Shown piece by piece: positions 13,851 through 57,696 of a stretch of 64,000 nucleotides of DNA. This DNA is from a virus. The stretch lies in IMG/VR virus record IMGVR_UViG_3300048033_000857, positions 1 to 64,000 of that record; one strand, written 5' to 3'. Numbering within the stretch: position 1 is the first letter of the stretch; the number at the start of each line of letters is the position of its first letter. The position numbers and the translations under genes are program-made. The notes beneath the pieces are model-generated. The model was given only the letters and a program-made list of their open reading frames with translations. It made no database searches and was not told where the DNA came from.

Positions 13851-15098
13851 ATGAATAATGTAGCTAACAGTATTGAAGATCTTCTAGAAACTCTTGCAGG
13901 ATTGCAAGGGCAAGCAACGATGCAAATTGAATCTAGCGATGCAACTATTATGCATAGTATTGCTAGACAAACATTTAGAGGCACAGCACTAACAGACAGG
14001 CAGCAAGCTCTTATAATAGAAAAGCTACAAACATATCGAGAGCAGTTTACGATATTAGACTACGACTTTGACACCGCAATTAATATACTACGCCAGCCCT
14101 TACGTGTTATTGATCGTAGTAAATATATTAAAATTGTAAACACAAATGAAGTATACAATAATGGTGGATACGAATCTTATAAAGAGAAGTGGAATTGGAT
14201 TAAAATAAGATTTCCTTTCAGCAAAAAATTAATTATAATTTTAGATTCGTTAAACAAGTCGACAGATTATTATCACGAAAAGGGCTCACACGAGCACTTC
14301 TTTCACCTTACAGAACAAAATTTATATAATGTAATTAATGCGTTTATTGATAAAAACTTTGAAATTGAAAGTACTTTACTAGAAAATTATTACATTATAA
14401 AAGATATGATTTCTAAAAAAGAAGATTATATTCCAGGAGTTTATAATTTTAAATTAAAAACAGTTACTGAAGCTTCGTACGACTATATAACTAATGTACT
14501 TGGTACTCCAAATATTCATAATCTTGCTGAATTTTATGACAAAAGAAAAACATTAGGTCTATCATATTTTGACAGTGTTGAATTAGAAAAAAGTTTAGCA
14601 TCCTATACTAATTTAACTCAAAAACTCATTATGCGTGAAAAAAATACGGTAATGGTCAATTCAAACAAATATACGTTTAATAATCTTGCAAATAGTTTAA
14701 TTGAAATGAAACGTTTTCCGTTGTTAGTAATTTTAACAGAATCGGAACCATTAGACAGTTTAATTCAAGTACACAGTGCGTTTAGTGGTTTTATTAATAA
14801 CAGCGAATGCACAGTAATGTTTAGATTAGATAATGAAAATAATTTTAATTTTAACAAATATATAAAAGATAACAATTTAAATTCTCCACTTGACAAAAAT
14901 ACAAAAGTAGTGTATATTAATACAAATAAAGTACCAAAGCCTTTAATTAAATCTAAATGGGTTGGAAGTACAGTACTAACACTACAAAGTTATTATATGA
15001 ATTCAAATATAGTAAATTACATACAAGAATATGACATGTGTGTGCAATACGATAATAATGTATCACAGTACATGCGATCGTCAATACAGGAAATTTAA
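13851..15098 (+). CDS. Hypothetical protein upstream of UvsW
   Basis: 415-aa ORF with its own promoter, coupled to the helicase; no motif recognised. Confidence 0.7.
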   Translation: MNNVANSIEDLLETLAGLQGQATMQIESSDATIMHSIARQTFRGTALTDRQQALIIEKLQTYREQFTILDYDFDTAINILRQPLRVIDRSKYIKIVNTNEVYNNGGYESYKEKWNWIKIRFPFSKKLIIILDSLNKSTDYYHEKGSHEHFFHLTEQNLYNVINAFIDKNFEIESTLLENYYIIKDMISKKEDYIPGVYNFKLKTVTEASYDYITNVLGTPNIHNLAEFYDKRKTLGLSYFDSVELEKSLASYTNLTQKLIMREKNTVMVNSNKYTFNNLANSLIEMKRFPLLVILTESEPLDSLIQVHSAFSGFINNSECTVMFRLDNENNFNFNKYIKDNNLNSPLDKNTKVVYINTNKVPKPLIKSKWVGSTVLTLQSYYMNSNIVNYIQEYDMCVQYDNNVSQYMRSSIQEI

Positions 15099-16564
15099 TG
15101 GCCAGTTGTAAACTAATAATTGAAGATGAAGTAAACATCAAGTTAGAAGGACTAGCAGTAGATGTACGAAGAAAAGTTGCAAATGCTCTTAAGTTTGAAG
15201 TGCCTTATGCAAAGTACATGCCACAGTATAAGCTAGGACGCTGGGATGGCAAAGTTGCATTCTTTGGCATTGGCGGCAGTGGATACGTTAATCACCTCGA
15301 TACTATTGTAGAAGTTCTCACAAAAAACAATGTACAAATTGTAGACATTGAAGACAACAGACATCCAATTAAATTAGACTTTACACCAGTAACAGAAAAC
15401 TATTGGAAAGATCAAGGTGTTGTATGGCCAGAGGGTCATCCAGCAGAGGGCGAAGACATTATTCTACGCGACTATCAAGTTGAAGCAATCAACAACTTTA
15501 TTTCTAATCCGCAGAGTCTACAGCAAATTGCTACAGGCGCAGGCAAAACAATTACAACAGCTACGTTATCACACATCAGTGAACCTTACGGGCGTAGCCT
15601 TGTTATTGTGCCTAATAAGTCCTTGGTTGAGCAGACAGAGGAAGACTATATTAACTGTGGATTAGACGTAGGGGTGTACTTCGGAGACAGAAAGCAACTA
15701 GGTAAGACTCACACTATCTGTACATGGCAGAGCTTAAACATTCTAGATAAGAAGTTTAAAGACGGCAGTGCAGTACTTGGACTCGCAGAGTTCTTGGAGG
15801 GTGTTAGCACTATTATTGTCGACGAAGTACACCAAGCCAAAGCAGAAGTTCTTAAGAACTTGCTTACACGCAACCTACGTAACGCTCCTATCCGTTGGGG
15901 ACTAACAGGTACAGTGCCTAAAGAGAAGTTTGAGTTTGAAAGTATTCACGCATCACTAGGTCCTGTTATCGGACAGATCAGTGCTAAGGAACTACAGGAC
16001 AAAGGTGTACTTGCACAATGTCATGTTAACGTAGTGCAATTAATTGATACAGTAGTGCATACAGATTATCAATCAGAATTAAAATATCTTGTGACAAACA
16101 AAGACAGAATAGAATACTTAGGCAAATTATTAAGCACAGTAAAAGAATCAGGCAACACACTTATACTAGTAGATAGAATTAGTGCAGGCGAAGCACTAGC
16201 AGAACTTATACCAGGCAGCACGTTTGTAAGCGGCGCTGTTAAGAACAAAGACAGAAAAGAAACATATGATACAATTCGCGAAGGCACTAATGAAGTTATT
16301 ATTGCAACCTACGGTGTTGCTGCCGTTGGTCTCAACATTCCTCGCATTTTTAACTTGGTACTTCTTGAACCTGGCAAGTCTTTTGTACGTGTAATTCAAT
16401 CTATTGGTAGAGGTGTAAGAAAGGCAAAGGACAAAGACTTCGTGCAAATATGGGATCTTACAAGTACGTGTAAGTTTGCGAAGCGGCACCTTACGCAGCG
16501 TAAAAAGTTTTACAAAGAGGCGCAGTATCCATTTACAATAGAAAAGGTAGATTGGAATGTTTAA
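15098..16564 (+). CDS. uvsW: SF2 DNA helicase UvsW-like
   Basis: LRDYQ, ATGAGKT, DEVH, GLTGT, QSIGRGVR. Confidence 0.9.
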   Translation: MASCKLIIEDEVNIKLEGLAVDVRRKVANALKFEVPYAKYMPQYKLGRWDGKVAFFGIGGSGYVNHLDTIVEVLTKNNVQIVDIEDNRHPIKLDFTPVTENYWKDQGVVWPEGHPAEGEDIILRDYQVEAINNFISNPQSLQQIATGAGKTITTATLSHISEPYGRSLVIVPNKSLVEQTEEDYINCGLDVGVYFGDRKQLGKTHTICTWQSLNILDKKFKDGSAVLGLAEFLEGVSTIIVDEVHQAKAEVLKNLLTRNLRNAPIRWGLTGTVPKEKFEFESIHASLGPVIGQISAKELQDKGVLAQCHVNVVQLIDTVVHTDYQSELKYLVTNKDRIEYLGKLLSTVKESGNTLILVDRISAGEALAELIPGSTFVSGAVKNKDRKETYDTIREGTNEVIIATYGVAAVGLNIPRIFNLVLLEPGKSFVRVIQSIGRGVRKAKDKDFVQIWDLTSTCKFAKRHLTQRKKFYKEAQYPFTIEKVDWNV

Positions 16565-18709: not shown

Positions 18710-19318
18710 ATGTTTAAGAACATCGATAAAATGATGATGCTAAAACTTGCATTTTTGCACGTTGTAGTTATCACGGTAAGTAACGCACTAGTCAACATTC
18801 CAGTTGAGATTGCAGGCGTTAAACTAACGTGGGCGGCATTTACGTTCCCATTAGTTATTATTGCTACTGATTTGACAGTACGTTTGTTAGGCAAGAACAT
18901 TGCTAGAGCAACTATTGCAGCAGCATATCCAATTGCTATTATTACAAGTATTGCAGTAGTACTAGCAGAAGGTGCTCCAGAAAGTGTAGCATTACGTATT
19001 GGCTTTGCAAGTGCAACAGCATATGCAGTAGGTACATTTATTGACGTATACGTGTTCCAAGCAATTAGAGAACGTATGAGTGTATGGTGGTTAGCACCTG
19101 CATTGTCAACTGTAGTTGCAAACGTAATTGACAGTTATACATTCTTTGCAGTTGCATTCAACAACAGTGCAGACGAGTATATGGCTGCTAACTGGATGGA
19201 AATTGCAACAAGCCAAGCAGGCTTAAAGATTGCTGTAGGACTAATAATCTTCCTACCAGCATACGGTGTTCTACTACGTTACCTCAAAGGACGTATGAAT
19301 GACACAGACGCAGGATAA
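18710..19318 (+). CDS. yhhQ: VUT family / YhhQ-like queuosine precursor (preQ0/preQ1) transporter
   Basis: Multi-pass membrane protein with SNALV, TWAAFTFP, TDLTVR, R...ASA.AY..G..IDV.VF, DS..FF..AF. Confidence 0.82.
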   Translation: MFKNIDKMMMLKLAFLHVVVITVSNALVNIPVEIAGVKLTWAAFTFPLVIIATDLTVRLLGKNIARATIAAAYPIAIITSIAVVLAEGAPESVALRIGFASATAYAVGTFIDVYVFQAIRERMSVWWLAPALSTVVANVIDSYTFFAVAFNNSADEYMAANWMEIATSQAGLKIAVGLIIFLPAYGVLLRYLKGRMNDTDAG

Positions 19319-40655: not shown

Positions 40656-40739
40656 TGGTGCCGCCACCGAGACTCGAACTCGGACGCCATAAGCGAGGGA
40701 TTTTAAGTCCCTTGTGTCTACCTATTCCACCATGGCGGC
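40656..40739 (-). tRNA. tRNA-Leu(UAA)
   Basis: GCCGCCA/TGGCGGC acceptor, anticodon loop CTTAAAA, long variable arm, GTTCGA, encoded CCA. Confidence 0.93.
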
Positions 40740-40844
40740 TTATGTCCACGCCAACCCCGGGCAAATCTATTAATAGTCCCAGAGCCTGACAGTCGCTATG
40801 TGATCTCCTACCTCAGCGTAATCGGTAAGGAACGCTGTCGTTGT

Positions 40845-40921
40845 TGGCCTGCCCTGCAGGATTCGAACCTGCGACCCACAGCTTAGAAGGCTGTTGCTCT
40901 ATCCAGCTGAGCTAAGGGCAG
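40845..40921 (-). tRNA. tRNA-Arg(UCU)
   Basis: CTGCCCT/AGGGCAG acceptor, loop CTTCTAA, GGTTCGAATCC, CCA. Confidence 0.93.
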
Positions 40922-40926
40922 TTATT

Positions 40927-41003
40927 TGGTGGGCCCTCCGAGACTCGAACTCGGAACCTACGGATTATGAGTCCGGTGCTCTAACCAATTGAGCTAAGAG
41001 CCC
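40927..41003 (-). tRNA. tRNA with CAU anticodon, probably Ile2 (lysidine type)
   Basis: GGGCTCTTAGCTCAATTGGTTAGAGCA..CTCATAA..GTTCGAGTC..CCA; lacks the initiator C1:A72 mismatch and GGG/CCC anticodon stem. Confidence 0.85.
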
Positions 41004-42496: not shown

Positions 42497-42670
42497 TCAA
42501 CCTTTTTCTGCGATTTTTCTTCCGATCATGCTGAGTAGTAGACTGCGAGCAAGATCAACACGACCACAATCGATCTGACGCAACACTGCTTCAAGACTCT
42601 CCTGACTGGTGTCATAGCCACCTGCGTTAGGTTCAACTGCCCACAGCATAGGGTTCTCTGGTTTACTCAT
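42497..42670 (-). CDS. Early hypothetical protein
   Basis: Start MSKPEN overlapping the end of the upstream gene. Confidence 0.55.
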   Translation of the reverse strand: MSKPENPMLWAVEPNAGGYDTSQESLEAVLRQIDCGRVDLARSLLLSMIGRKIAEKG

Positions 42671-43208
42671 CTGCCATTTCTTCTTCTTTCCACATCTCGA
42701 AGTTCTCAACCAGAGCATACTCTTCGTCTAGGCGATTAAACAAGTCCGAACGCTCGTCTTCTGGCAGCTCGCATTGCTCTGTGAGGTTGTCGCAGTATTC
42801 GTCGCCACCTTCGCTATGCCAAAAGCCTGCAAAGTCCATACCAGGCTCGTGATAACTTGCCTGGATGTCACAGTTATCCATATCGTCACAGAACTGCTCG
42901 TAAGCACCAATAGGCGGAGCCCATGCACTGTCAAACCAACCAGTGATCTCGGCTGTTCCGTCTTCGTTGTCGATATACTCCAATCCTTCGTCGGAGACAT
43001 CCCACTTGGTGCCCCAACTGTTGACTCGCCACGAATACCAATCTGGACCGTCTGGGTTAGGAGCAGTTGTGCCTTCTAGCTCTTTAGGCATAGGCGCCAT
43101 TGCATTGAGTAGACCAAAGTCCTCGCCTACGTGAGCATCGTCCCACAGTTGCTTGATGGTCTCAGTTGGACCGGAGATTGTGATTGAGTTGTTGCACCAA
43201 TTTGGCAT
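42663..43208 (-). CDS. DUF1281/YubB ferredoxin-like family protein
   Basis: MPNWCNN, WYSWRVNSWGTKWD, FDSAWAPP, Y.EPG.DF.G. Confidence 0.78.
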   Translation of the reverse strand: MPNWCNNSITISGPTETIKQLWDDAHVGEDFGLLNAMAPMPKELEGTTAPNPDGPDWYSWRVNSWGTKWDVSDEGLEYIDNEDGTAEITGWFDSAWAPPIGAYEQFCDDMDNCDIQASYHEPGMDFAGFWHSEGGDEYCDNLTEQCELPEDERSDLFNRLDEEYALVENFEMWKEEEMADE

Positions 43209-43222
43209 AGTAGTTCTCCCTC

Positions 43223-43405
43223 TTAGTATTCGTCGATTAAAAATGCGTCTTCGTCTTCCTGGAAGCGTTCGGAAAGCTCGTTTGCGTCTAGCATGTCTTC
43301 AACTTCGTCTGTTGACATATACTTGAGTGCCATAGTCAGCATGTCTTCTGCTGATACTAGGCCTTCTTCTACCAATGCTAGTGCTGCGTCTCTTGAATCA
43401 AACAT
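43223..43405 (-). CDS. Small acidic early protein
   Basis: LKYMSTDEVEDMLDANEL; promoter and GAGGGC. Confidence 0.7.
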   Translation of the reverse strand: MFDSRDAALALVEEGLVSAEDMLTMALKYMSTDEVEDMLDANELSERFQEDEDAFLIDEY

Positions 43406-43556
43406 ATTGTTGCCCTCTTTTGTTTAACTTATACATACACTATAGCACGGGTGTATGCAGTTGTCAACCCCTAAATTAAACTTTTTTAAAGTGTGTTACA
43501 GCGGGGCCTGCGGGTGTGCGCACTATAGCACAGTGTGCGCTATAGTGCAAGTTTTT

Positions 43557-43829
43557 TTAACTTTCGTATTTTACTCCTACTAAGCGCAAATAGCGTCCTC
43601 CAAATGTAGTATGCACTTTGTCACATCCTACTAGCAGCTTTAACCATTTGCAGTCACCTTCTGTAAAACGTTCTCCTACAATACCAAAGCACAAGTTGCG
43701 TTTAGCTGCATCCTTAGCATTGTCTTTCCAAACTACGTTAGTCCAACTGTTCCAAAAACTAGCATTCTTTTCTGCTAGTACAGTTGCAACCAATTTACGT
43801 GCTTGTTTAGTGTTTAGTTCATAGCGCAT
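43557..43829 (-). CDS. Early hypothetical protein (GA/GG-free zone)
   Basis: Start MRYELN after GGAGGGC; no Pro. Confidence 0.68.
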   Translation of the reverse strand: MRYELNTKQARKLVATVLAEKNASFWNSWTNVVWKDNAKDAAKRNLCFGIVGERFTEGDCKWLKLLVGCDKVHTTFGGRYLRLVGVKYES

Positions 43830-43905
43830 ATAAAGCCCTCCATATGCTGTTACGTTATACAAGCACTATAGCATAAACTACAGTGCTTGTCAAGTGTTTT
43901 TTAAA

Positions 43906-44259
43906 TTATGTTTCTAAGCTAGCAACTCCGTCGTCTTGCATGCCTTGCTCCGTAAATGTTACGTCAAAGCCTAGCGCAACACTTATGCTCTCCTCAAAGC
44001 CATCGTCTGTGTATATGCGCCAATCGCCTGTGCCGTTTGCGTTGTGCTCCACATAAATCATTGTGCTAGTGTCGCCATCCTCATATGTCATCTCATGTAC
44101 TTCCACAGCACTAACACCTACACGCAAGTCACCTGCATATCCCCATATGCTGCTGCCGTTGCACTCCGCAAAGCCGTTTGCGTCCCAACGTGTTACAACA
44201 CAGCTATAGTCTTCGTCTGCGTGTGTTGTACGTGTTGTTTTGTTTTTTAATGTAAGCAT
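43906..44259 (-). CDS. Acidic early hypothetical protein (GA/GG-free zone)
   Basis: Start MLTLKN after GAGGGC; IYTDDGFE...FTEQGMQ; no Pro. Confidence 0.72.
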   Translation of the reverse strand: MLTLKNKTTRTTHADEDYSCVVTRWDANGFAECNGSSIWGYAGDLRVGVSAVEVHEMTYEDGDTSTMIYVEHNANGTGDWRIYTDDGFEESISVALGFDVTFTEQGMQDDGVASLET

Positions 44260-44351
44260 AGTTTGCCCTCTTTGCTTTGTTAACTTATACATACACTATA
44301 GCACAAGTGTGCGCTGCTGTCAACTAAAAAATGCTAACAGCAGCAACTTTT

Positions 44352-44702
44352 TTATGCAGCAAGCGCACTAGTATACTTTGCATAGTTGTTGCGTAGTTTA
44401 GCATACTGCGGATAAGCTGCGTCTGCTTGCTGCTGTAGCTTAAACAATAGCACACTGTTAGCACTAGTGCATGTGTAGTTGGGATAGCTTTTAGCTAAGT
44501 GTATAAACTGTTTAGCGGGCACACTTGTTAGCTGCACTGTGCTTGCATGCACACGGTAGTCGCTTGCTATGCTTGCGTTAGCAAACAAATACATAGTTAC
44601 GTTTAGCATGTTAGTGTTTTTGTTTACGCTTTTAACTAGTGCTAAACGCTGTGTGTTTTTATAGTTTACTAGTACTACGCTGTTACGTTTAATGTTTTGC
44701 AT
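44352..44702 (-). CDS. Basic early hypothetical protein
   Basis: Start MQNIKR after AGAGGGC; no Glu, Gly or Trp. Confidence 0.65.
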   Translation of the reverse strand: MQNIKRNSVVLVNYKNTQRLALVKSVNKNTNMLNVTMYLFANASIASDYRVHASTVQLTSVPAKQFIHLAKSYPNYTCTSANSVLLFKLQQQADAAYPQYAKLRNNYAKYTSALAA

Positions 44703-44794
44703 ATTATAGCCCTCTATGCTGTTAACGTTATATAAACAATATAGCACAAGCAGCGCACTTTGTAAAGTAAAAAATGCGCTGCTGTGTAAGTTTT

Positions 44795-45058
44795 TTATGC
44801 TAGTGCTTCAAATGCTTCATCTATTATATTATGCGCACTTGCGTCACTTGCAAAGCCCTCTTCTTCTGCAAAATCTATGCTGCTGCTACACATAATAACG
44901 TCTGTAAGCACATTAACGTTATGTGTTAAAAACACTTGCACAAGTGCGTCTGCTGTTTGTACGTCTGTTGCTACAACTGTGTTATTTACAGTTACAACAA
45001 TTGCAGCGTTGCAAGCGTTTAAAAATACGTTGTTTGTTTTTGTAGTTGTGTTTTGCAT
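44795..45058 (-). CDS. Early hypothetical protein
   Basis: Start MQNTTT; CSSSIDFAEEEGF. Confidence 0.68.
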   Translation of the reverse strand: MQNTTTKTNNVFLNACNAAIVVTVNNTVVATDVQTADALVQVFLTHNVNVLTDVIMCSSSIDFAEEEGFASDASAHNIIDEAFEALA

Positions 45059-45138
45059 ATTATAGCCCTCTATGCTTGTTAACTTATACATACACTATAG
45101 CATTAAAAGTGTAGTTTGTAAAGAGAAAAGTTTTGTTT

Positions 45139-45180
45139 AAAAACAAGCACTTAGCATTTTTCTTGTAAGTGCTTGTTTTT
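45139..45180. repeat. Inverted repeat made of two IHF-like sites (possible terminator)
   Basis: AAAAACAAGCACTTA ... TAAGTGCTTGTTTTT. Confidence 0.6.
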
Positions 45181-45185
45181 GTTAG

Positions 45186-45353
45186 TTAAATTTCCTCTAA
45201 GCAGCGTTCTACTGTGTCTACTACAACGTAAGCGTCTGCTGCTGCGTTAAGCAGTACTAGTGCTTTTTGTGCTTCTTCAAATGTAGCAAAAGCACTAGCA
45301 ACGCCTGTTGTTAAGTTACAAATAAAGTACGGAAAGTTTACAACGTTTTGCAT
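45186..45353 (-). CDS. 55-aa early protein (not in ORF track)
   Basis: MQNVVNFPYFICNLTTGVASAFATFEEAQKAL...; same leader as its two neighbours. Confidence 0.62.
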   Translation of the reverse strand: MQNVVNFPYFICNLTTGVASAFATFEEAQKALVLLNAAADAYVVVDTVERCLEEI

Positions 45354-45498
45354 ATTATACCCTCTATGCTGTTTAAGTTATACATACACTATAGCACAAA
45401 CGGACACAGCTGTCAACTACTAAATGCATTTAAACGAACAAAAGAACCCTTTGTTTTCAATAGGTTAGCACCTAAAGATTCCTAACGATATCAAACGG

Positions 45499-45831
45499 TT
45501 ACATGCTCCAGTATGTCTCGCTGCTAGGTGACATGTAGTTGGGTGTGTTAACTGGCTCCATAAACTCTTTGCCACCAAACCCCTCTAGCACACGGCGCAG
45601 CACTTTCTTCTCTATAGTAGTGTGGAAATAGTCTGCCTCTGCTATACCATAACGGAACACAGCATGATTCGGATCAGTCTTCAACAACCCCTCTGCCTTT
45701 GCAATTCGAGTGACTGCTGCCTTCGCTGCTGCCATTGTCTTGTAGCTGCAACGGTGATCCGGACGAGCAATACCTGTGCGATCTGGCTTGCCAATAATGT
45801 AGGTTGAAGTCTTTTCATATACGTAGTACAT
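45499..45831 (-). CDS. Early hypothetical protein
   Basis: YKTMAAAKAAVTR, NTPNYMSPSSETYWSM; promoter and GAGGGC. Confidence 0.75.
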   Translation of the reverse strand: MYYVYEKTSTYIIGKPDRTGIARPDHRCSYKTMAAAKAAVTRIAKAEGLLKTDPNHAVFRYGIAEADYFHTTIEKKVLRRVLEGFGGKEFMEPVNTPNYMSPSSETYWSM

Positions 45832-45879
45832 AGTAGTGCCCTCTTTGTTTCTAACTTATACATACACTATACAGTCATA

Positions 45880-46047
45880 CTAGCACCTTGTCAACCGATA
45901 TTTTCGTTTGAGTTCACTAAAATTCCCTCTCACATACTCATCGAACGTATACGGCTGAGTCTGACGCCATGCTTCCCATTCATCTCGGTTCTCCCAATAC
46001 TGAGTCCACAGATAGGCACGAAAAGGTTTCAATTTAAATTTATTCAT
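45880..46047 (-). CDS. Small hypothetical protein
   Basis: Start MNKFKL after GAGGAG; promoter at 46077-46105. Confidence 0.6.
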   Translation of the reverse strand: MNKFKLKPFRAYLWTQYWENRDEWEAWRQTQPYTFDEYVRGNFSELKRKYRLTRC

Positions 46048-46109
46048 CAGTTTCTCCTCTACACTGTAGTATATATAGTATACAACCAAACGACACCTTT
46101 GTCAAGACC

Positions 46110-46804
46110 ACAAGCAGCGGGGCCTATAGTATGTTCGAACTGCTCTATAGTGTATAGTTCATCCTATACACGCACTCGACACTATAAGTCATTGATATCA
46201 TTACACTATACACTATAGTAGAGTCACAGTGCGTGTATAGTGTGTATAGTGTGTATAGTGTGTATATAGAGGCCTCTGGCCGAACGGTAGTAAGTGTTTG
46301 AATAATAAGGGAATTATATACACACTCAAAACCGGCCTACAGCAGCGGGGCCTAGTAGGATCTAGAGTGGATTTATGGTAGAGATGGTTCAGGTTTTGGA
46401 TGAATTGGTGTGAATAAACCATTGATTTTTATACACTTTGGTGTACAATAACGCTAGGTTTTTATACACCATCTCGCGGTGACGAGAGGCATAGTTTAAA
46501 TACTTTTCGACCCATTTCTGTACGTCTAATATCTGTATGTTTTTGTACACCCTGTTAGATTATTCACGCATAATGCACACACAACCTAGCAGCGGGGCCT
46601 CTACACTAGCATGAGAGTGTGCAGCCACGCTCGCACAAGTGTCTCACTCTACTATAGTGTATAGTGTGTATAGTGCGCTACTGCTACTACTACTACTACT
46701 ACTGTAGTCTATAGTGTATAGCGTATATGCGTTAACCGTAGTGTATAGTTCGAACTCATCTATATACGTGCGCATGTATAGTGTGTGATCTAGCAGCGGG
46801 GTCT
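46110..46804. repeat. Non-coding repeat block: 4x GCAGCGGGG(C/T)CT, GTGTATAGT tandem, (CTA)n, IHF-consensus sites
   Basis: Motif at 46115, 46343, 46590, 46794; 9-mer tandem at 46233-46266; CTA run at ~46685-46702. Confidence 0.8.
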
Positions 46805-47404: not shown

Positions 47405-48272
47405 ACGTGTTGAAATACACACTGATAGCTCTTGCGTAGAGTTTGAGTTGGCTGATACCTCAGCTGCAAACGCTTGGTTTGACTATGCACGTGATGTGGT
47501 TAGATACACCACCAACAGTTTTTATTGTACGCATGTGTGGAGAGAAGCAGCCACAAGTGCAGAGCAGACCAATTGGCAGCAGATCAAACGTTTGACACAG
47601 GAGCTAGACCATCACATTCAAACACTAGTACGTCACACAGGTCAAGACTATGCCAGTGTGAAGGCTGCAATTCGCAGTCTAGAGTCACAGCCCACACAAG
47701 CAGCCTGCAACACCATACACAGATTGTTTACCAGTGTGTGTCAATCAGGGCAATTAGCAGAGCACAACTCAGCTGACCTAGAACAGAGTGTACACGCTAT
47801 CAATGGTTGTGTACACGAGATAGAAGTCAGCTTTGGTCAACCCTTGCGTGAGCAATGGGATGGCAGAGTATTTCAAGTGTTGTTCACCGACGCACTCACA
47901 CGTGAAGGCGTGGACTTTAGTGTGTGGAACACCAGCCTTAGACATCAACAGTTTGATCATCGCACTCAAAACACTGACTATGATGTGTGGCTCAATGACG
48001 ACATATTGGGCAAAGATCTACCCAGATGTTTTCTTGATCAAGATGACCCTTGCGAATCAGACATCACAGGCAATCAGTTTCTAACACCCAGCCTTTATTT
48101 CGATCTAGATCGACACTATCATCGTATAGTAACAAGCCCAGAGTTTAACACATGGCTGGACGATACCAAGTGTGGCAAAACACTAGACAGATGGCCCTTG
48201 GGCACCATTACTAACATAACACAACTGCCTGAGGAATACACTCAGGTCTTGGAGTATAAATTTTATGACTGA
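47397..48272 (+). CDS. Hypothetical protein
   Basis: Likely start MARRVE; N.IHR.F, IN..VH.IE, ILGKD....F.DQD. Confidence 0.65.
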   Translation: MARRVEIHTDSSCVEFELADTSAANAWFDYARDVVRYTTNSFYCTHVWREAATSAEQTNWQQIKRLTQELDHHIQTLVRHTGQDYASVKAAIRSLESQPTQAACNTIHRLFTSVCQSGQLAEHNSADLEQSVHAINGCVHEIEVSFGQPLREQWDGRVFQVLFTDALTREGVDFSVWNTSLRHQQFDHRTQNTDYDVWLNDDILGKDLPRCFLDQDDPCESDITGNQFLTPSLYFDLDRHYHRIVTSPEFNTWLDDTKCGKTLDRWPLGTITNITQLPEEYTQVLEYKFYD

Positions 48273-49458
48273 CAAACGATGCCTTGCGCCTTGGATACAC
48301 CTACACACTTGGCCCAATGGCAGCACCTATCCCTGTTGTCTAACAGACATGCGAGACATAGTAGGCAACACCAACAACAACACTCTCAAAGAAATATTCA
48401 ACGACAAACCCATGCGTGATCTACGTTTGGATTTTATAGCAGGCAAAGAACCCAAGACCTGTAGTCGTTGTTTCGAACAAGAGCGTATGGGTCAAAGCAG
48501 CCTGCGCAATCATATCGATCGCAATTTTGGACAACACAAAGATCTTATCGCAACTACACTACAAGATGGAACAGTAGAAGACATGCGTCTAGTATACTGG
48601 GACTTTCGATTCTCTAACATCTGTAACATGAAGTGTCGCAGTTGTGGACCGCAGTTGAGTTCGGGTTGGTACGAAGATGAAAAGAAACTCAACGGACGTT
48701 TGCCTCCGGATGTACCAGATCGAACAATAGAGAGTAACCTATGGGAAGATCTACTACCACATTTTGATTGGGTAGAAGAAATTTACTTTGCAGGCGGTGA
48801 GCCTCTTATAATGGAGGAACACTATCGTATTCTAAACAGACTGTTAGAACTAGAAAAAACTGATGTGCGCATACGATATAACACTAACTTTTCAACCATG
48901 CGTTACAAAAAGCTAGATGCTATTGATGCTTGGAGTAACTTTAAAAATGTAGAAATTGGTGCTAGCCTAGACGGCATGGGCAAACAAGCTGAGTACATTC
49001 GTTCTGGTACTAAATGGCAGCAGGTACTAGACAATAGAGAACGTATGAAACTCAAAGTGCCGCATGCAAACTTCTACATCAATTGTACTGTGAGTGTGCA
49101 GAATGCATATCACATTGTAGATTTTTATAAATGGGCTGTTGAATCAGACTTTATTCCTTATGTTGATAGTTTTAGAATTAATATAGTTCAAAACCCTCTC
49201 AAATTAAGGATGCAGATGCTTCCTACTCATCATAAACAGGCTCTTACCAAACTGTATAAAGAAACAGCAGAATGGGCCAAGACCAAAGGCAGTAACGGAT
49301 TGGTAGTAGATCAGTGGGAAAGTTTGATTAATTTCTTAAATGATCAAGATCAGCCTGAAAACTTAGAGCAGTTTAAAACATACATGGGTGCTATAGATAA
49401 CATAAGGAATGAAAGTTTTGCTGAAACGTTTCCTGAAATGAGAGACCTAATTGAATGA
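48265..49458 (+). CDS. Radical SAM protein with N-terminal SPASM/twitch-like domain
   Basis: CLAPW..PCC; CNMKCRSC; FAGGEP; YNTN; ASLDG. Confidence 0.88.
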   Translation: MTDKRCLAPWIHLHTWPNGSTYPCCLTDMRDIVGNTNNNTLKEIFNDKPMRDLRLDFIAGKEPKTCSRCFEQERMGQSSLRNHIDRNFGQHKDLIATTLQDGTVEDMRLVYWDFRFSNICNMKCRSCGPQLSSGWYEDEKKLNGRLPPDVPDRTIESNLWEDLLPHFDWVEEIYFAGGEPLIMEEHYRILNRLLELEKTDVRIRYNTNFSTMRYKKLDAIDAWSNFKNVEIGASLDGMGKQAEYIRSGTKWQQVLDNRERMKLKVPHANFYINCTVSVQNAYHIVDFYKWAVESDFIPYVDSFRINIVQNPLKLRMQMLPTHHKQALTKLYKETAEWAKTKGSNGLVVDQWESLINFLNDQDQPENLEQFKTYMGAIDNIRNESFAETFPEMRDLIE

Positions 49459-50546
49459 GTAAGCCGTGCTTATTACCATTTATACATTTAGAAACTGACA
49501 CAGTAGGCAATGTTCGTCCTTGTTGTATGTGGCGCGGCGAACCAATGGGCAATCTAAACAATCAAAGTATCGACGAAGTATGGAATGGAGAGCGTTATTC
49601 AGCTCTTCGAGAACAGTTTCGCACAAGCAAACAATTGCCTAGTGGTTGTGAATTTTGTTGGCGTGCCGAACAAGGAGGCATGCAGAGCAAAAGACAAAAT
49701 GATAATGCTAGATTTGACCATCATCAGCACGGAGTTACGCTCGATGCTCCTGTTTATTTAGATCTTAAACTAGGATCAATATGCAACATTAAATGTCGTA
49801 CTTGTTCGTCACAGCATTCACAAAAATGGGCTGCTGATGAGAAAATAATATACGGCGAACAACGTTTCCCTACAGTTCTTAATTGGCTAGATGACGACAG
49901 TCAGTTTTGGAAAGACTTAGAAAAAATTGCTCCTACTATTGAGTTTATTGATTTTACTGGAGGAGAACCTTTTCTAGTAAAAGGCCACTGGCAACTATTA
50001 GAGTATCTTGTCGAGCACGGATACGCTGCTAATATTAAAATACATTACAACACAAACGGAACAGTACTACCCAAGCCAGAGCAACGCGACTTATGGTTGC
50101 ACTTTGAATGGGTAGAAACTATGTTTTCTTTTGATGGCATAGGCAGCAAGTTTGAGTATTTACGTCATCCTGCACGTTGGGATAAAGTCCTGCATACCTT
50201 TAACACAATACTTGATGAAGCTGTTACTCATACAACATTATGTTACACAGTTAGTTTAATGAATGTATTAGACATGAGAGAGTTTGCAGAGTGGGCCCCT
50301 GTTGATGTGTATTGGAATATGTTACACGGACCAGAGTATTATAGTATACGTAATCTACCAGAAAATGTAAAAGACATTATTGCTGATAAAATAGATAGAC
50401 AAGATGTAATAGATTACATGTACGCCGGCGAGCATAGTAAAGGTCTATGGGAAGATTTTGTAAAAACTACAAAACAAATTGATATAATACGTAACGAAAA
50501 CTTTAGTACAGTATTTCCAGAACTTTCTCAACTAATAAATATCTAA
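49455..50546 (+). CDS. Radical SAM protein with N-terminal SPASM/twitch-like domain (paralog)
   Basis: CLLPF..PCC; CNIKCRTC; FTGGEP; YNTNG; FSFDG. Confidence 0.88.
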   Translation: MSKPCLLPFIHLETDTVGNVRPCCMWRGEPMGNLNNQSIDEVWNGERYSALREQFRTSKQLPSGCEFCWRAEQGGMQSKRQNDNARFDHHQHGVTLDAPVYLDLKLGSICNIKCRTCSSQHSQKWAADEKIIYGEQRFPTVLNWLDDDSQFWKDLEKIAPTIEFIDFTGGEPFLVKGHWQLLEYLVEHGYAANIKIHYNTNGTVLPKPEQRDLWLHFEWVETMFSFDGIGSKFEYLRHPARWDKVLHTFNTILDEAVTHTTLCYTVSLMNVLDMREFAEWAPVDVYWNMLHGPEYYSIRNLPENVKDIIADKIDRQDVIDYMYAGEHSKGLWEDFVKTTKQIDIIRNENFSTVFPELSQLINI

Positions 50547-56294: not shown

Positions 56295-56804
56295 GTGGCA
56301 GACACACTTGTATTAAATGCAGACGGACAACCTATTAGCCTACTACCGCCTTCTACGATACAGTGGAAAGAAGCAATTACATATCTATGGCTAGACAAAG
56401 TAAACGTACTCGAATGGTATGACGATTGGGTAGTGAGCAGTGCAAGTTGGGAAACAAGAGTACCAGCAGTAATCATGTTAAAAGAAATGTATCGGCGGCG
56501 ACGGCATCCAAGATTCTCTCGCTACAACCTACACCTCCGTGACATGTTTACCTGTCAATACTGTTCCATAAAACTCCCCCAATCACAACTAACACTAGAC
56601 CATGTACTACCTATCAGTCGTGGAGGTAAAACCAATTGGGAAAATATTGTAAGTGCATGTGGACCATGCAACAGCAGAAAGGGCAGCAAGTTAATTAAGC
56701 CTAAGCAATTACCTTACCGCCCTGATTATTATGATCTTGCTAACAAACGCAAGCAACTAGAGTTTACTATTAAACATCCTAGTTGGTCTAATTGGTTGTC
56801 TTAA
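56295..56804 (+). CDS. HNH endonuclease (McrA-like)
   Basis: LVLNAD, RD.FTCQYC, TLDHVLP.SRGG...WENIV.AC..CN..K. Confidence 0.9.
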   Translation: MADTLVLNADGQPISLLPPSTIQWKEAITYLWLDKVNVLEWYDDWVVSSASWETRVPAVIMLKEMYRRRRHPRFSRYNLHLRDMFTCQYCSIKLPQSQLTLDHVLPISRGGKTNWENIVSACGPCNSRKGSKLIKPKQLPYRPDYYDLANKRKQLEFTIKHPSWSNWLS

Positions 56805-57696
56805 TTGGTATGTTTGGATTTAACGTTTTTTCAGATTCAAATAATACATCTTTACTCACATTACCATAAAGAACACCTTTGATGTTACACTTGTTACAAG
56901 GATGACATCCACGTCCGTTAGAAAGTTTTTGTCTAAACTTCCATAGCTTTTGGCTTTTTAACCAAATATCTTGTACACTAGTCTTCATTACATTACCCAT
57001 AACTTGTTTCTTTTCCCAGTCATGTGAGCAAAGTAATACATCGCCGTCCCAGTGTAAACTCATTGCATAGAACGGAATGTTGCAACCTAGTGCAGGGAGT
57101 TTTTCATTAAACAAATATCCTGCTCTATTACTTAGATATAAGAATCCATAATTTTCCTCTGGTGGCTTATAATAATGTTGAAGTATAAAGTTATCTTCAG
57201 ATAATCCTACTCTAGCAAAGAGTTCTCTAAATTTATCTTCTTGCTCAGGGCCATCGTACATTGACACAAAGAATTTGTTTAGTCCAGCATCAATTAATTC
57301 AACAGTCTTGTCGTATGTAAGCCTATCACCATTAGTAACCATATGTATGTTTTCTTGCCAAGGCATATGTTTTTTAAATAATTTTATACTTTTGGTAAGA
57401 TCCTTGTACAACAAACTTTCTCCAAACCCACAATAGAGTAATCTATTTTGATAATGACTGTTAGCTAGATCACTTCCAACTTTATCTATTATCTTTAGAT
57501 CCATATGTAAGTTTAAGTTTGGATAACCGTGTGCTCTAGGACAGAATTCACAAGTTAAATTGCATAGTTCTGTAGCCATTACATCTATCAACATTAACGA
57601 GCTAAAAGGATCATCAGTAGTCATCCGATCTTCCATAGGATCGTACATTGATTCTCTGTCTTTAGCAATATAGTTTGTACTTTTCATCTCTGGCAT
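56788..57696 (-). CDS. Radical SAM/SPASM protein
   Basis: CNLTCEFC; GFGE; TNG; C-terminal C..PF...WDG.V.LC..D..C..C. Confidence 0.85.
   Translation of the reverse strand: MPEMKSTNYIAKDRESMYDPMEDRMTTDDPFSSLMLIDVMATELCNLTCEFCPRAHGYPNLNLHMDLKIIDKVGSDLANSHYQNRLLYCGFGESLLYKDLTKSIKLFKKHMPWQENIHMVTNGDRLTYDKTVELIDAGLNKFFVSMYDGPEQEDKFRELFARVGLSEDNFILQHYYKPPEENYGFLYLSNRAGYLFNEKLPALGCNIPFYAMSLHWDGDVLLCSHDWEKKQVMGNVMKTSVQDIWLKSQKLWKFRQKLSNGRGCHPCNKCNIKGVLYGNVSKDVLFESEKTLNPNIPIKTTN

Follow-up and report, generated by a model that had tools for sequence, protein, structure and literature searches.

We analysed a window of 64,000 nucleotides (nt), the first 64 kb of the 83,337-nt IMG/VR virus record IMGVR_UViG_3300048033_000857, and describe here a zone on its minus strand in which five small genes, g1 to g5, are nearly devoid of two dinucleotides, TC and CC. 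The two are written together as YC and are counted on the message strand; they equal GA and GG on the plus strand. As the five genes lie on the minus strand, the strand without YC is the message strand, that is, the non-template strand of the DNA. The source is an uncultured marine giant phage, and the completeness of 23% given by CheckV for the record indicates that the window is a piece of a very large genome. The zone belongs to a block of small genes on the minus strand, at about 36.8–47.0 kb, which is flanked by plus-strand genes. Its features, from right to left, are the following.

45388–45416, minus strand: g5 promoter, TTGACA-17-TATAGT, with TG before the -10
43514–45381, minus strand: the YC-free zone, beginning near the transcription start of the first promoter and ending slightly beyond the 3' hairpin
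45186–45353, minus strand: g5, an orphan of 55 amino acids (aa; MQNVVNF...), with 1 proline (Pro) and 2 YC
45139–45180, both directions: canonical two-way terminator (A run, hairpin, U run) 3' of g5
45094–45122, minus strand: g4 promoter, TTTACA-17-TATAGT
44795–45058, minus strand: g4, 87 aa with an acidic C-terminus, 0 YC and few GA/GG
44738–44766, minus strand: g3 promoter, TTTACA-17-TATATT
44352–44702, minus strand: g3, 116 aa, with a ban on four dinucleotides (TC, CC, GA, GG)
44295–44323, minus strand: g2 promoter, its -35 within the 3' arm of a 12-base-pair (bp) hairpin
43906–44259, minus strand: g2, 117 aa, 0 YC, member of a 29-member family with the motif IYTD...TEQGMQ
43865–43893, minus strand: g1 promoter, its spacer and -10 spanned by a 13-bp hairpin
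43557–43832, minus strand: g1, 91 aa, 0 YC
43520–43548, minus strand: 13-bp hairpin closing the zone on its 3' side, with the first YC 3 nt beyond
43499–43508, minus strand: GGCCCCGCTG motif bordering the zone on its 3' side; the window has 5 copies in total, each on the minus strand

Each of the five genes is a self-contained early cassette, composed of a consensus sigma-70-type promoter, a common leader, a strong ribosome site, a small orphan gene and a hairpin. Seven units of the early block carry a near-identical promoter (TTGACA or TTTACA, 17 nt, TATAGT or TATATT, mostly with a preceding TG), leader and ribosome site, and the hairpins of the cassettes have z-scores of -2.7 to -6.1. An earlier note on this DNA, made from the letters alone, had pointed to two promoters with TTTACA, which are those of g4 and g3. 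In their organisation, though not by a comparison of sequence, the cassettes resemble the early promoter/stem-loop (PeSL) cassettes of T4-type phages, as outlined in the accessible portions of PMC2839356 and PMC4122927. In both, small and variable orphan early genes sit between a conserved early promoter and a hairpin and are shuffled among genomes, whereas the PeSL cassettes are described for their shuffling and not for a dinucleotide ban. That the present cassettes also shuffle is indicated by contigs from public runs that link them in other orders, e.g. 45180 to 43906 and 43558 to 44802, although these contigs come from mixed populations and are weak evidence. Stable hairpins of 12–16 bp at 44290–44360, 44735–44800 and 43860–43915 (minus strand) overlap the -35, the spacer or the -10 of internal promoters.

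From 43515 to 44409 (895 nt) the plus strand contains 0 GA and 0 GG, against 38.0 + 26.5 = 64.5 expected from base composition, and it lacks both dinucleotides over the whole of 43514–44409; the exact count thus bears out the manual reading of the earlier note. Over 43515–45430 there are 6 GA and 8 GG, a total of 14 where 152 are expected, in agreement with the approximate 14 against well over 100 that had been estimated, and 5000 mononucleotide shuffles of the same stretch gave a mean of 151.8 and a minimum of 122. Runs free of GA/GG reach 897, 568 and 206 nt in the zone, while the next longest in the 83,337-nt contig is 137 nt; at the GA/GG frequency of the contig, a run of 897 nt has a chance of about 2e-40 per start. 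The density of YC amounts to 7.3 per kb in the zone versus 71.8 and 72.7 in the flanking early genes. The message strand of the zone is composed of 18.0% C and 21.5% G.

The depletion is significant beyond what the encoded proteins dictate. In synonymous shuffles that preserve the amino acids (5000 per gene, with codon frequencies taken from 31 long genes in the contig), the observed message-strand YC relative to the shuffle mean was 2/7.3 for g5, 0/10.1 for g4, 8/20.1 for g3, 0/10.4 for g2 and 0/7.2 for g1, with P ≤0.001 for every one of them, and in all five genes YC is missing wherever the protein allows. Five of five control genes next to the zone show no such depletion in the same kind of shuffle. 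The neighbours at 43223–43405 and 45499–45831 have normal YC despite having the same promoter, leader and ribosome site, and a 181-aa neighbour (42663–43208) exceeds its synonymous expectation (46 vs 30). The ban is therefore gene-specific, as equally promoted neighbours are normal. It also reaches the proteins: all 27 of their 27 serine (Ser) codons are AGY, Pro accounts for 0.9% of residues versus 4.0% in reference genes, and three of the five proteins lack Pro entirely; the AGY codons of Ser and the three proteins without Pro are as the earlier note had read them.

Most of the 14 residual YC of 43515–45430 had been ascribed to Pro codons, and 9 are indeed found in four Pro codons and the junctions preceding them. 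One more lies at a Tyr|Arg junction in g3, a gene that also avoids AGR, two lie between the sole canonical terminator and the next -35, and two in the spacer of the first promoter; the last four are probably untranscribed sequence. Counted over the zone proper (43514–45381), this leaves 10 YC in the 4 Pro codons and the Tyr|Arg junction, plus the 2 in the gap from terminator to promoter (45123 and 45125 on the plus strand, between the terminator at 45139–45180 and the next -35), which are its sole internal intergenic YC.

Similar zones occur in relatives. A search with the gene of the 181-aa neighbour returned 80 related loci, of which 16 hold YC-free runs longer than 300 nt on the strand of that gene (longest, 1259 nt); when up to 3 YC per 300 nt are tolerated, zones are present in 27 of the 80. 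In one locus, L085, a YC-free run above 300 nt lies only on the opposite strand. Open reading frames with ribosome sites sit on the YC-free strand of the related loci, and inverted genes with 0 sense-strand YC are found at 14762–15106 of locus L016 and at 18947–19075 and 19446–19694 of L085, in stretches free of GA/GG on the plus strand of the locus. Homologues of g4 in L011, L012, L015 and L018 have 0 YC in every case, and in two more viral contigs the homologues of g1 (92% and 54% identity) have 0 YC and lie within long YC-free runs. The homologues of g1 form 87 protein clusters, 70 of them without Pro and 16 with a single Pro at position 41. The 29 members of the g2 family range from 0 to 85 YC per kb, banned and normal members together, which argues that the ban is a state that a gene acquires and not a property of its protein. 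No zone was seen in the first 50 kb of Pseudomonas phage PA5oct, a long terminal repeat with small early genes (longest YC-free run, 187 nt), nor in the first 14 kb of Roseobacter phage CRP-207, which hold a 55%-identical homologue of the 181-aa gene (longest run, 113 nt). Fisher tests of protein families between zone-bearing and other loci recovered clade membership only and no gene linked to the zones. Some cassettes of the relatives have the ban on both strands.

The limits of the ban coincide with those of transcription. In the window it starts at about the -10 of the first promoter, the final YC upstream (45402–45403) being in the g5 promoter spacer, and it stops 3 nt past the 13-bp 3' hairpin. 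Ten promoters were classed as 5' edges (a few of which are internal, the g2 promoter of the window among them); their upstream sequence including the spacer has 10–100 YC per kb, and the sequence from the -10 onward has 0. Residual intergenic YC falls mostly in promoter spacers, in terminator hairpins or gaps and in the GGCCCCGCTG motif, and some lies between the ribosome site and the ATG (L011, L037, L047). These limits at the -10 and at the 3' hairpin argue that the unit under constraint is the transcript, or the DNA strand that its synthesis displaces, and not the duplex. The transcribed sequence of the five cassettes has been purged of 5'-YC-3' on the message strand by natural selection, and the purge extends to synonymous sites, codon junctions, leaders and intergenic spacers, and has removed Pro and the TCN codons of Ser from the proteins.

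This anatomy bears directly on the first explanation put forward in the earlier note, according to which the loss of GA and GG would protect the first-entering double-stranded DNA from restriction. A strand without GA/GG does lose all palindromes containing GA, TC, GG or CC, a loss that follows from the ban itself. However, the ban over 43514–44409 is confined to a single strand and follows the coding strand, flipping with the inverted genes of L016 and L085; it hits non-palindromic steps and codon junctions; its edges stop at about the -10, with YC left in the promoter spacers; and the zone lies mid-way in the 83-kb contig. A strand-symmetric loss of specific palindromes was not found. As the one-strand ban follows inverted genes and has such bounds, the loss of palindromes is a by-product and not a driver, and we regard restriction avoidance as highly improbable. 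In the ALTERNATIVES of that note, the strand-specific pattern under selection therefore holds, and restriction as its cause does not. Viruses are known to avoid target words, and phage T7 is said to avoid restriction sites and to have strand-biased Type III sites. Such cases are alike in that phage DNA is purged of target words, and they differ in that the words are specific ones of 4–6 letters, with a strand bias only in T7 and at one site.

The YC density is bimodal over 2423 called genes, 50 of which are at exactly 0. After removal of near-duplicate loci, the low-YC set of the relatives comprises 64 genes, and 47 of these have 0 YC over 12,216 nt. In the low-YC genes the base preceding a codon that starts with C is a purine in 643 cases and a pyrimidine in 9, compared with 48% pyrimidine in 1793 normal genes, and NYC accounts for 14 of the 2414 NYN codons, which shows that the constraint is on the nucleic acid and not on the choice of codons. 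Pro falls to 0.10% versus 3.5%, and Ser is AGY in 229 of 231 codons. Pooled C is 16.9% versus 19.6% and purines are 59% versus 55%, a mild shift, while AC and GC are both raised, to 1.51 and 1.91 times expectation.

A mutational footprint without selection, in which YC is deaminated from C to U time and again on the non-template strand while this lies exposed in highly active genes, could account for the raised TT of the message strand in the low-YC genes (1.34 vs 1.08 times expectation). An APOBEC-type footprint, i.e. a loss of C with a gain of YT, is however not what is seen, as CT is not raised (1.08 vs 1.11), and the near-conservation of C together with the strong rise of AC and GC argues against decay by deamination. 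Moreover, equally promoted neighbours are untouched, and the proteins are conserved (g1 has 22 invariant columns across 31 sequences). The natural variants described next, with their paired changes, also count against such an origin, which is hardly credible.

Contigs of 4 public runs were aligned to the region, and 40 of the 241 differences were listed, with phasing per run assumed. Among the differences listed, 39 fall in the zone and, when applied per run, 0 of them add a GA or GG to the plus strand. Three of the 39 would alone create such a site, and in each case a second change next to it keeps the site from forming. If the same substitutions are placed at random, 9.1 new sites are expected, and not one of 5000 trials was free of new sites. 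Selection on the zone is thus acting in nature at present. In 19 studies, seawater and estuary runs yielded contigs that contain the stretch, whole or in large parts.

A second ban is superimposed on the first in g3. Its YC is confined to 3 Pro codons and the one Tyr|Arg junction, its GA to 2 Asp codons, and GG is at 0; GA/GG on the message strand amounts to 2 observed versus 9.8 expected, a depletion found in g3 only. The protein lacks Glu, Gly and Trp, as the earlier note had stated for 44352–44702, and the homologue in L011 (4350–4700) repeats the pattern, with 2 GA in Asp codons, GG at 0 and no Glu, Gly or Trp.

Taken together, we infer that a reader of YC on single-stranded nucleic acid acts in the infected cell and that each YC is costly, so that the ban points to the reader and gives its specificity. 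The bimodal density and the genes at exactly 0 make this reader look non-cooperative. We tentatively prefer a one-hit enzyme acting on single strands over the termination factor Rho, a preference that stops somewhat short of an even chance. Such an enzyme might be an endoribonuclease, a base-modifying ADP-ribosyltransferase of the CmdT/DarT kind, or a cytosine deaminase with a preference for a pyrimidine at -1, and it might come from host defence or be a tool of the phage for host shut-off. It would attack the mRNA, or the non-template strand while displaced, during the first minutes after infection; messages free of the target would stay intact and translatable as long as the enzyme is active, and the products of these cassettes would therefore still be made. 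The third suggestion of the earlier note, avoidance of TC/CC-targeting deaminases or DarT-type toxins, comes near to this, insofar as a single-strand reader of TC/CC fits all of the anatomy. The second ban of g3 suggests a second reader, of the CmdT kind that acts on GA.

The closest precedent is CmdTAC, in which CmdT ADP-ribosylates adenine in GA of single-stranded mRNA and blocks translation; in the accessible part of that report, its authors judged escape through loss of sites implausible (bioRxiv 10.1101/2024.02.24.581662). CmdT is likewise a dinucleotide-specific, single-strand-specific, one-hit reader of messages, and g3 keeps GA only at 2 Asp codons. It differs in reading GA and not YC; the ribosome sites here keep GA, and no such gene is tied to the host of this phage. 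Messages without ACA reportedly resist MazF, another instance in which a message lacking the site survives a sequence-specific RNase, although there the message is engineered or the site has three letters, whereas here the case is natural, the word has two letters and whole transcription units are concerned.

Rho offers the main alternative. A message without YC could not load Rho and would be transcribed to its end even when ribosomes trail RNA polymerase. Such a transcript should be depleted in YC, which it is, and the ban spans leaders and intergenic RNA, begins at the transcription start and allows YC in terminator hairpins. By DnaB (49–54% identity), the closest cultured phages are jumbo phages of Proteobacteria, e.g. 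PA5oct and Atu_ph07, and these hosts probably have Rho. The banned pair UC and CC equals the specificity of the primary binding clefts of Rho, which take 5'-YC on naked nascent RNA according to the part of PMC12360218 that could be consulted, and avoidance of a pyrimidine-rich sense strand to escape Rho has been demonstrated for Bacillus subtilis in the consulted part of PMC13323073. The two situations thus share the same two dinucleotides on nascent RNA, the recoding of the sense strand including synonymous sites and the logic of hiding the message. They differ in that the known cases are statistical biases of whole genomes, whereas here the ban is absolute, affects single cassettes, spares the neighbours and costs an amino acid.

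Several observations are nevertheless difficult to accommodate with Rho. Its binding is cooperative, several subunits each holding a segment of RNA (PMC12360218, same part), so that a lone YC per kilobase should be neutral; yet 47 genes are at exactly 0, and natural variants avoid single new sites through paired changes. Early neighbours with the same promoter and leader show no depletion, and one neighbouring gene has the excess of YC reported above. Furthermore, C is barely lowered, the residual YC has no bias toward the 3' end (mean relative position 0.46, in a small sample of 30 sites), and the GA/GG ban of g3 is left unexplained. Overall, evasion of Rho seems rather unlikely to us, though a serious contender. 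A cost per site, a need limited to certain genes and a second banned word fit single-site enzymes better than Rho.

The enzyme reading has its own difficulties. Our literature searches turned up no enzyme of bacteria or phages that is specific for YC on RNA, and we know of no YC-specific single-strand enzyme of the CmdT-like kind. No candidate reader gene appeared among the window proteins scanned, and the remaining phage genes, including other early genes, are YC-rich and would be exposed to the same enzyme. Intermediate homologues at 10–32 YC per kb exist, the identity of the banned pair with the exact primary-site specificity of Rho is a coincidence if an enzyme is at work, and an antidote role of the five proteins is a guess. 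It is conceivable, at less than an even chance, that an undescribed class of enzymes of marine bacteria or giant phages attacks a two-letter step (YC, and a second one at GA/GG) on single-stranded RNA or DNA, and that these phages answer with stealth cassettes, entire transcription units recoded to lack the target, giving up Pro.

The second proposal of the earlier note concerned the template: the phage would modify G in GA/GG contexts and keep the template of its urgent genes free for the host RNA polymerase. In coliphage CAjan, preQ0 is said by that note to occur at GA and GGC. Modification of the template would fit the strand concerned, the onset where transcription begins, the reversal of the ban with inverted genes and the cost per site, and the window does contain the YhhQ-like transporter that had been named. 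Related records add FolE in 4 of 5 and QueD in 3 of 5 (in G001–G004, FolE in 4 of 4 and a QueD-like PTPS in 3 of 4), and this points, from gene content, to an incomplete 7-deazaguanine or pterin pathway in the related large records. On the other hand, QueC exceeded the cut-off in 0 of 5 of these records, and no TGT/DpdA match was obtained in the contig itself (23% complete) or in the 5 related records (3 of them rated complete), a search in which divergent forms could be missed; FolE, QueD and QueC gave none in the contig of the window. Other early genes with the same promoter, moreover, keep GA/GG on their template. The proposal is thus weakened, and we consider it improbable. The transporter gene is the following.

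18827–19264, strand not stated: YhhQ/Vut_1 transporter gene, by family match

In the literature searched we found no prior description of an absolute, strand-specific two-letter ban in single early cassettes that is paid for with an amino acid. If the reader is Rho, the cassettes represent a new cis-acting route of a phage past termination. An enzyme, on the other hand, would amount to a novel form of immunity or of host shut-off, and the banned words would be a direct readout of the specificity of immune or shut-off enzymes. The system also provides natural matched controls, with the same promoter and the same protein family occurring with and without the ban, so that the reader could be identified by a simple reporter screen.

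The products of the zone are presumably proteins of takeover or counter-defence. PHROG and Pfam searches with the five proteins gave no match, nor did tblastn of g1, g2, g3 and g4 against 50,697 phage records, and an Atlas search with the zone proteins gave no usable lead. The predicted model of g2 (predicted local distance difference test, pLDDT, 87.6) had no Foldseek match at E ≤0.001; a likeness of g2 to Pur-alpha was discarded, the best VIA match (Z 6.5 over 45 residues) being under the noise level of the tool, 7–8. For g1 (pLDDT 93.0) only generic ACT/S6-like alpha/beta matches were returned, the best at Z 6.9. In the X19 metatranscriptome a 277-nt contig covers 43576–43850, and small pieces match elsewhere; as a contig does not demonstrate a transcript and DNA may be present in this library, no conclusion on expression is drawn from it, nor from the parts left uncovered. 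A blastn search of 43000–46000 against phage records gave no match.

Among the neighbours of the zone, the gene used for the search of relatives is the following.

42663–43208, minus strand: 181-aa neighbour gene, with a DUF1281_C (Api92-like, ferredoxin-like) domain

Relatives of this gene were found in 98 stretches of viral contigs, and it is also related to genes of Roseobacter phage CRP-207, Puniceispirillum phage HMO-2011 and Prochlorococcus phage P-HM1. Genes for tRNA-Leu (TAA), tRNA-Arg (TCT) and tRNA-Met (CAT) lie within the early block, at 40656–41003 on the minus strand. The UUR codons of Leu and the AGR codons of Arg, to which the first two are relevant, have no C at the start of the codon; the share of AGR among Arg codons is lower in the low-YC genes (22%) than in normal genes (31%).

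Elsewhere, the window encodes proteins of replication and recombination (a gp32-like protein, a RecA/UvsX-like protein, a DnaB-like helicase and a Toprim primase), together with a carbamoyltransferase, an aminotransferase, sugar-nucleotide enzymes and several 2-oxoglutarate/Fe(II) (2OG-Fe(II)) oxygenases. Three radical-SAM/SPASM proteins (48265–50546 and 56788–57696) stand beside 2OG-Fe(II) oxygenases, an aminotransferase, a sulfotransferase-like protein and a methyltransferase, a neighbourhood that may be a peptide- or sugar-modifying gene set.

The left edge of the zone had been associated with a motif, CAGCGGGGCCT, which is confirmed at 43499–43509. Searched as (G/A)(G/A)CCCCGCTG, the motif occurs 5 times in the window versus 0.09 expected, at these positions.

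43499–43508, 46115–46124, 46343–46352, 46590–46599 and 46794–46803, all minus strand: copies of the motif in the window, by motif search

In the form GGCCCCG[CG]TG it has 59 copies in 1.34 Mb (the contig itself and loci L009–L088), 58 of them on the sense strand of early genes, often directly after the end of a gene or before a promoter and sometimes in arrays at a spacing of 31–72 nt. The GGCCCCGCTG motif also marks the 3' edge of the zones in L011, L015, L016 and L069. From its placement, it could be a signal for processing or termination, a protein binding site or a set of iterons. The hairpin at the 3' edge of the zone is followed by a T run on the plus strand (43536–43560 of the window) and reads as a terminator facing into the zone, for antisense transcripts coming from the left. 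Finally, 46100–46800 on the minus strand contains no convincing gene. It carries repeated CACTATACA-like units and a run of GTA/AGT triplets, and the motif is found there three times; the stretch may serve in regulation or as an origin.

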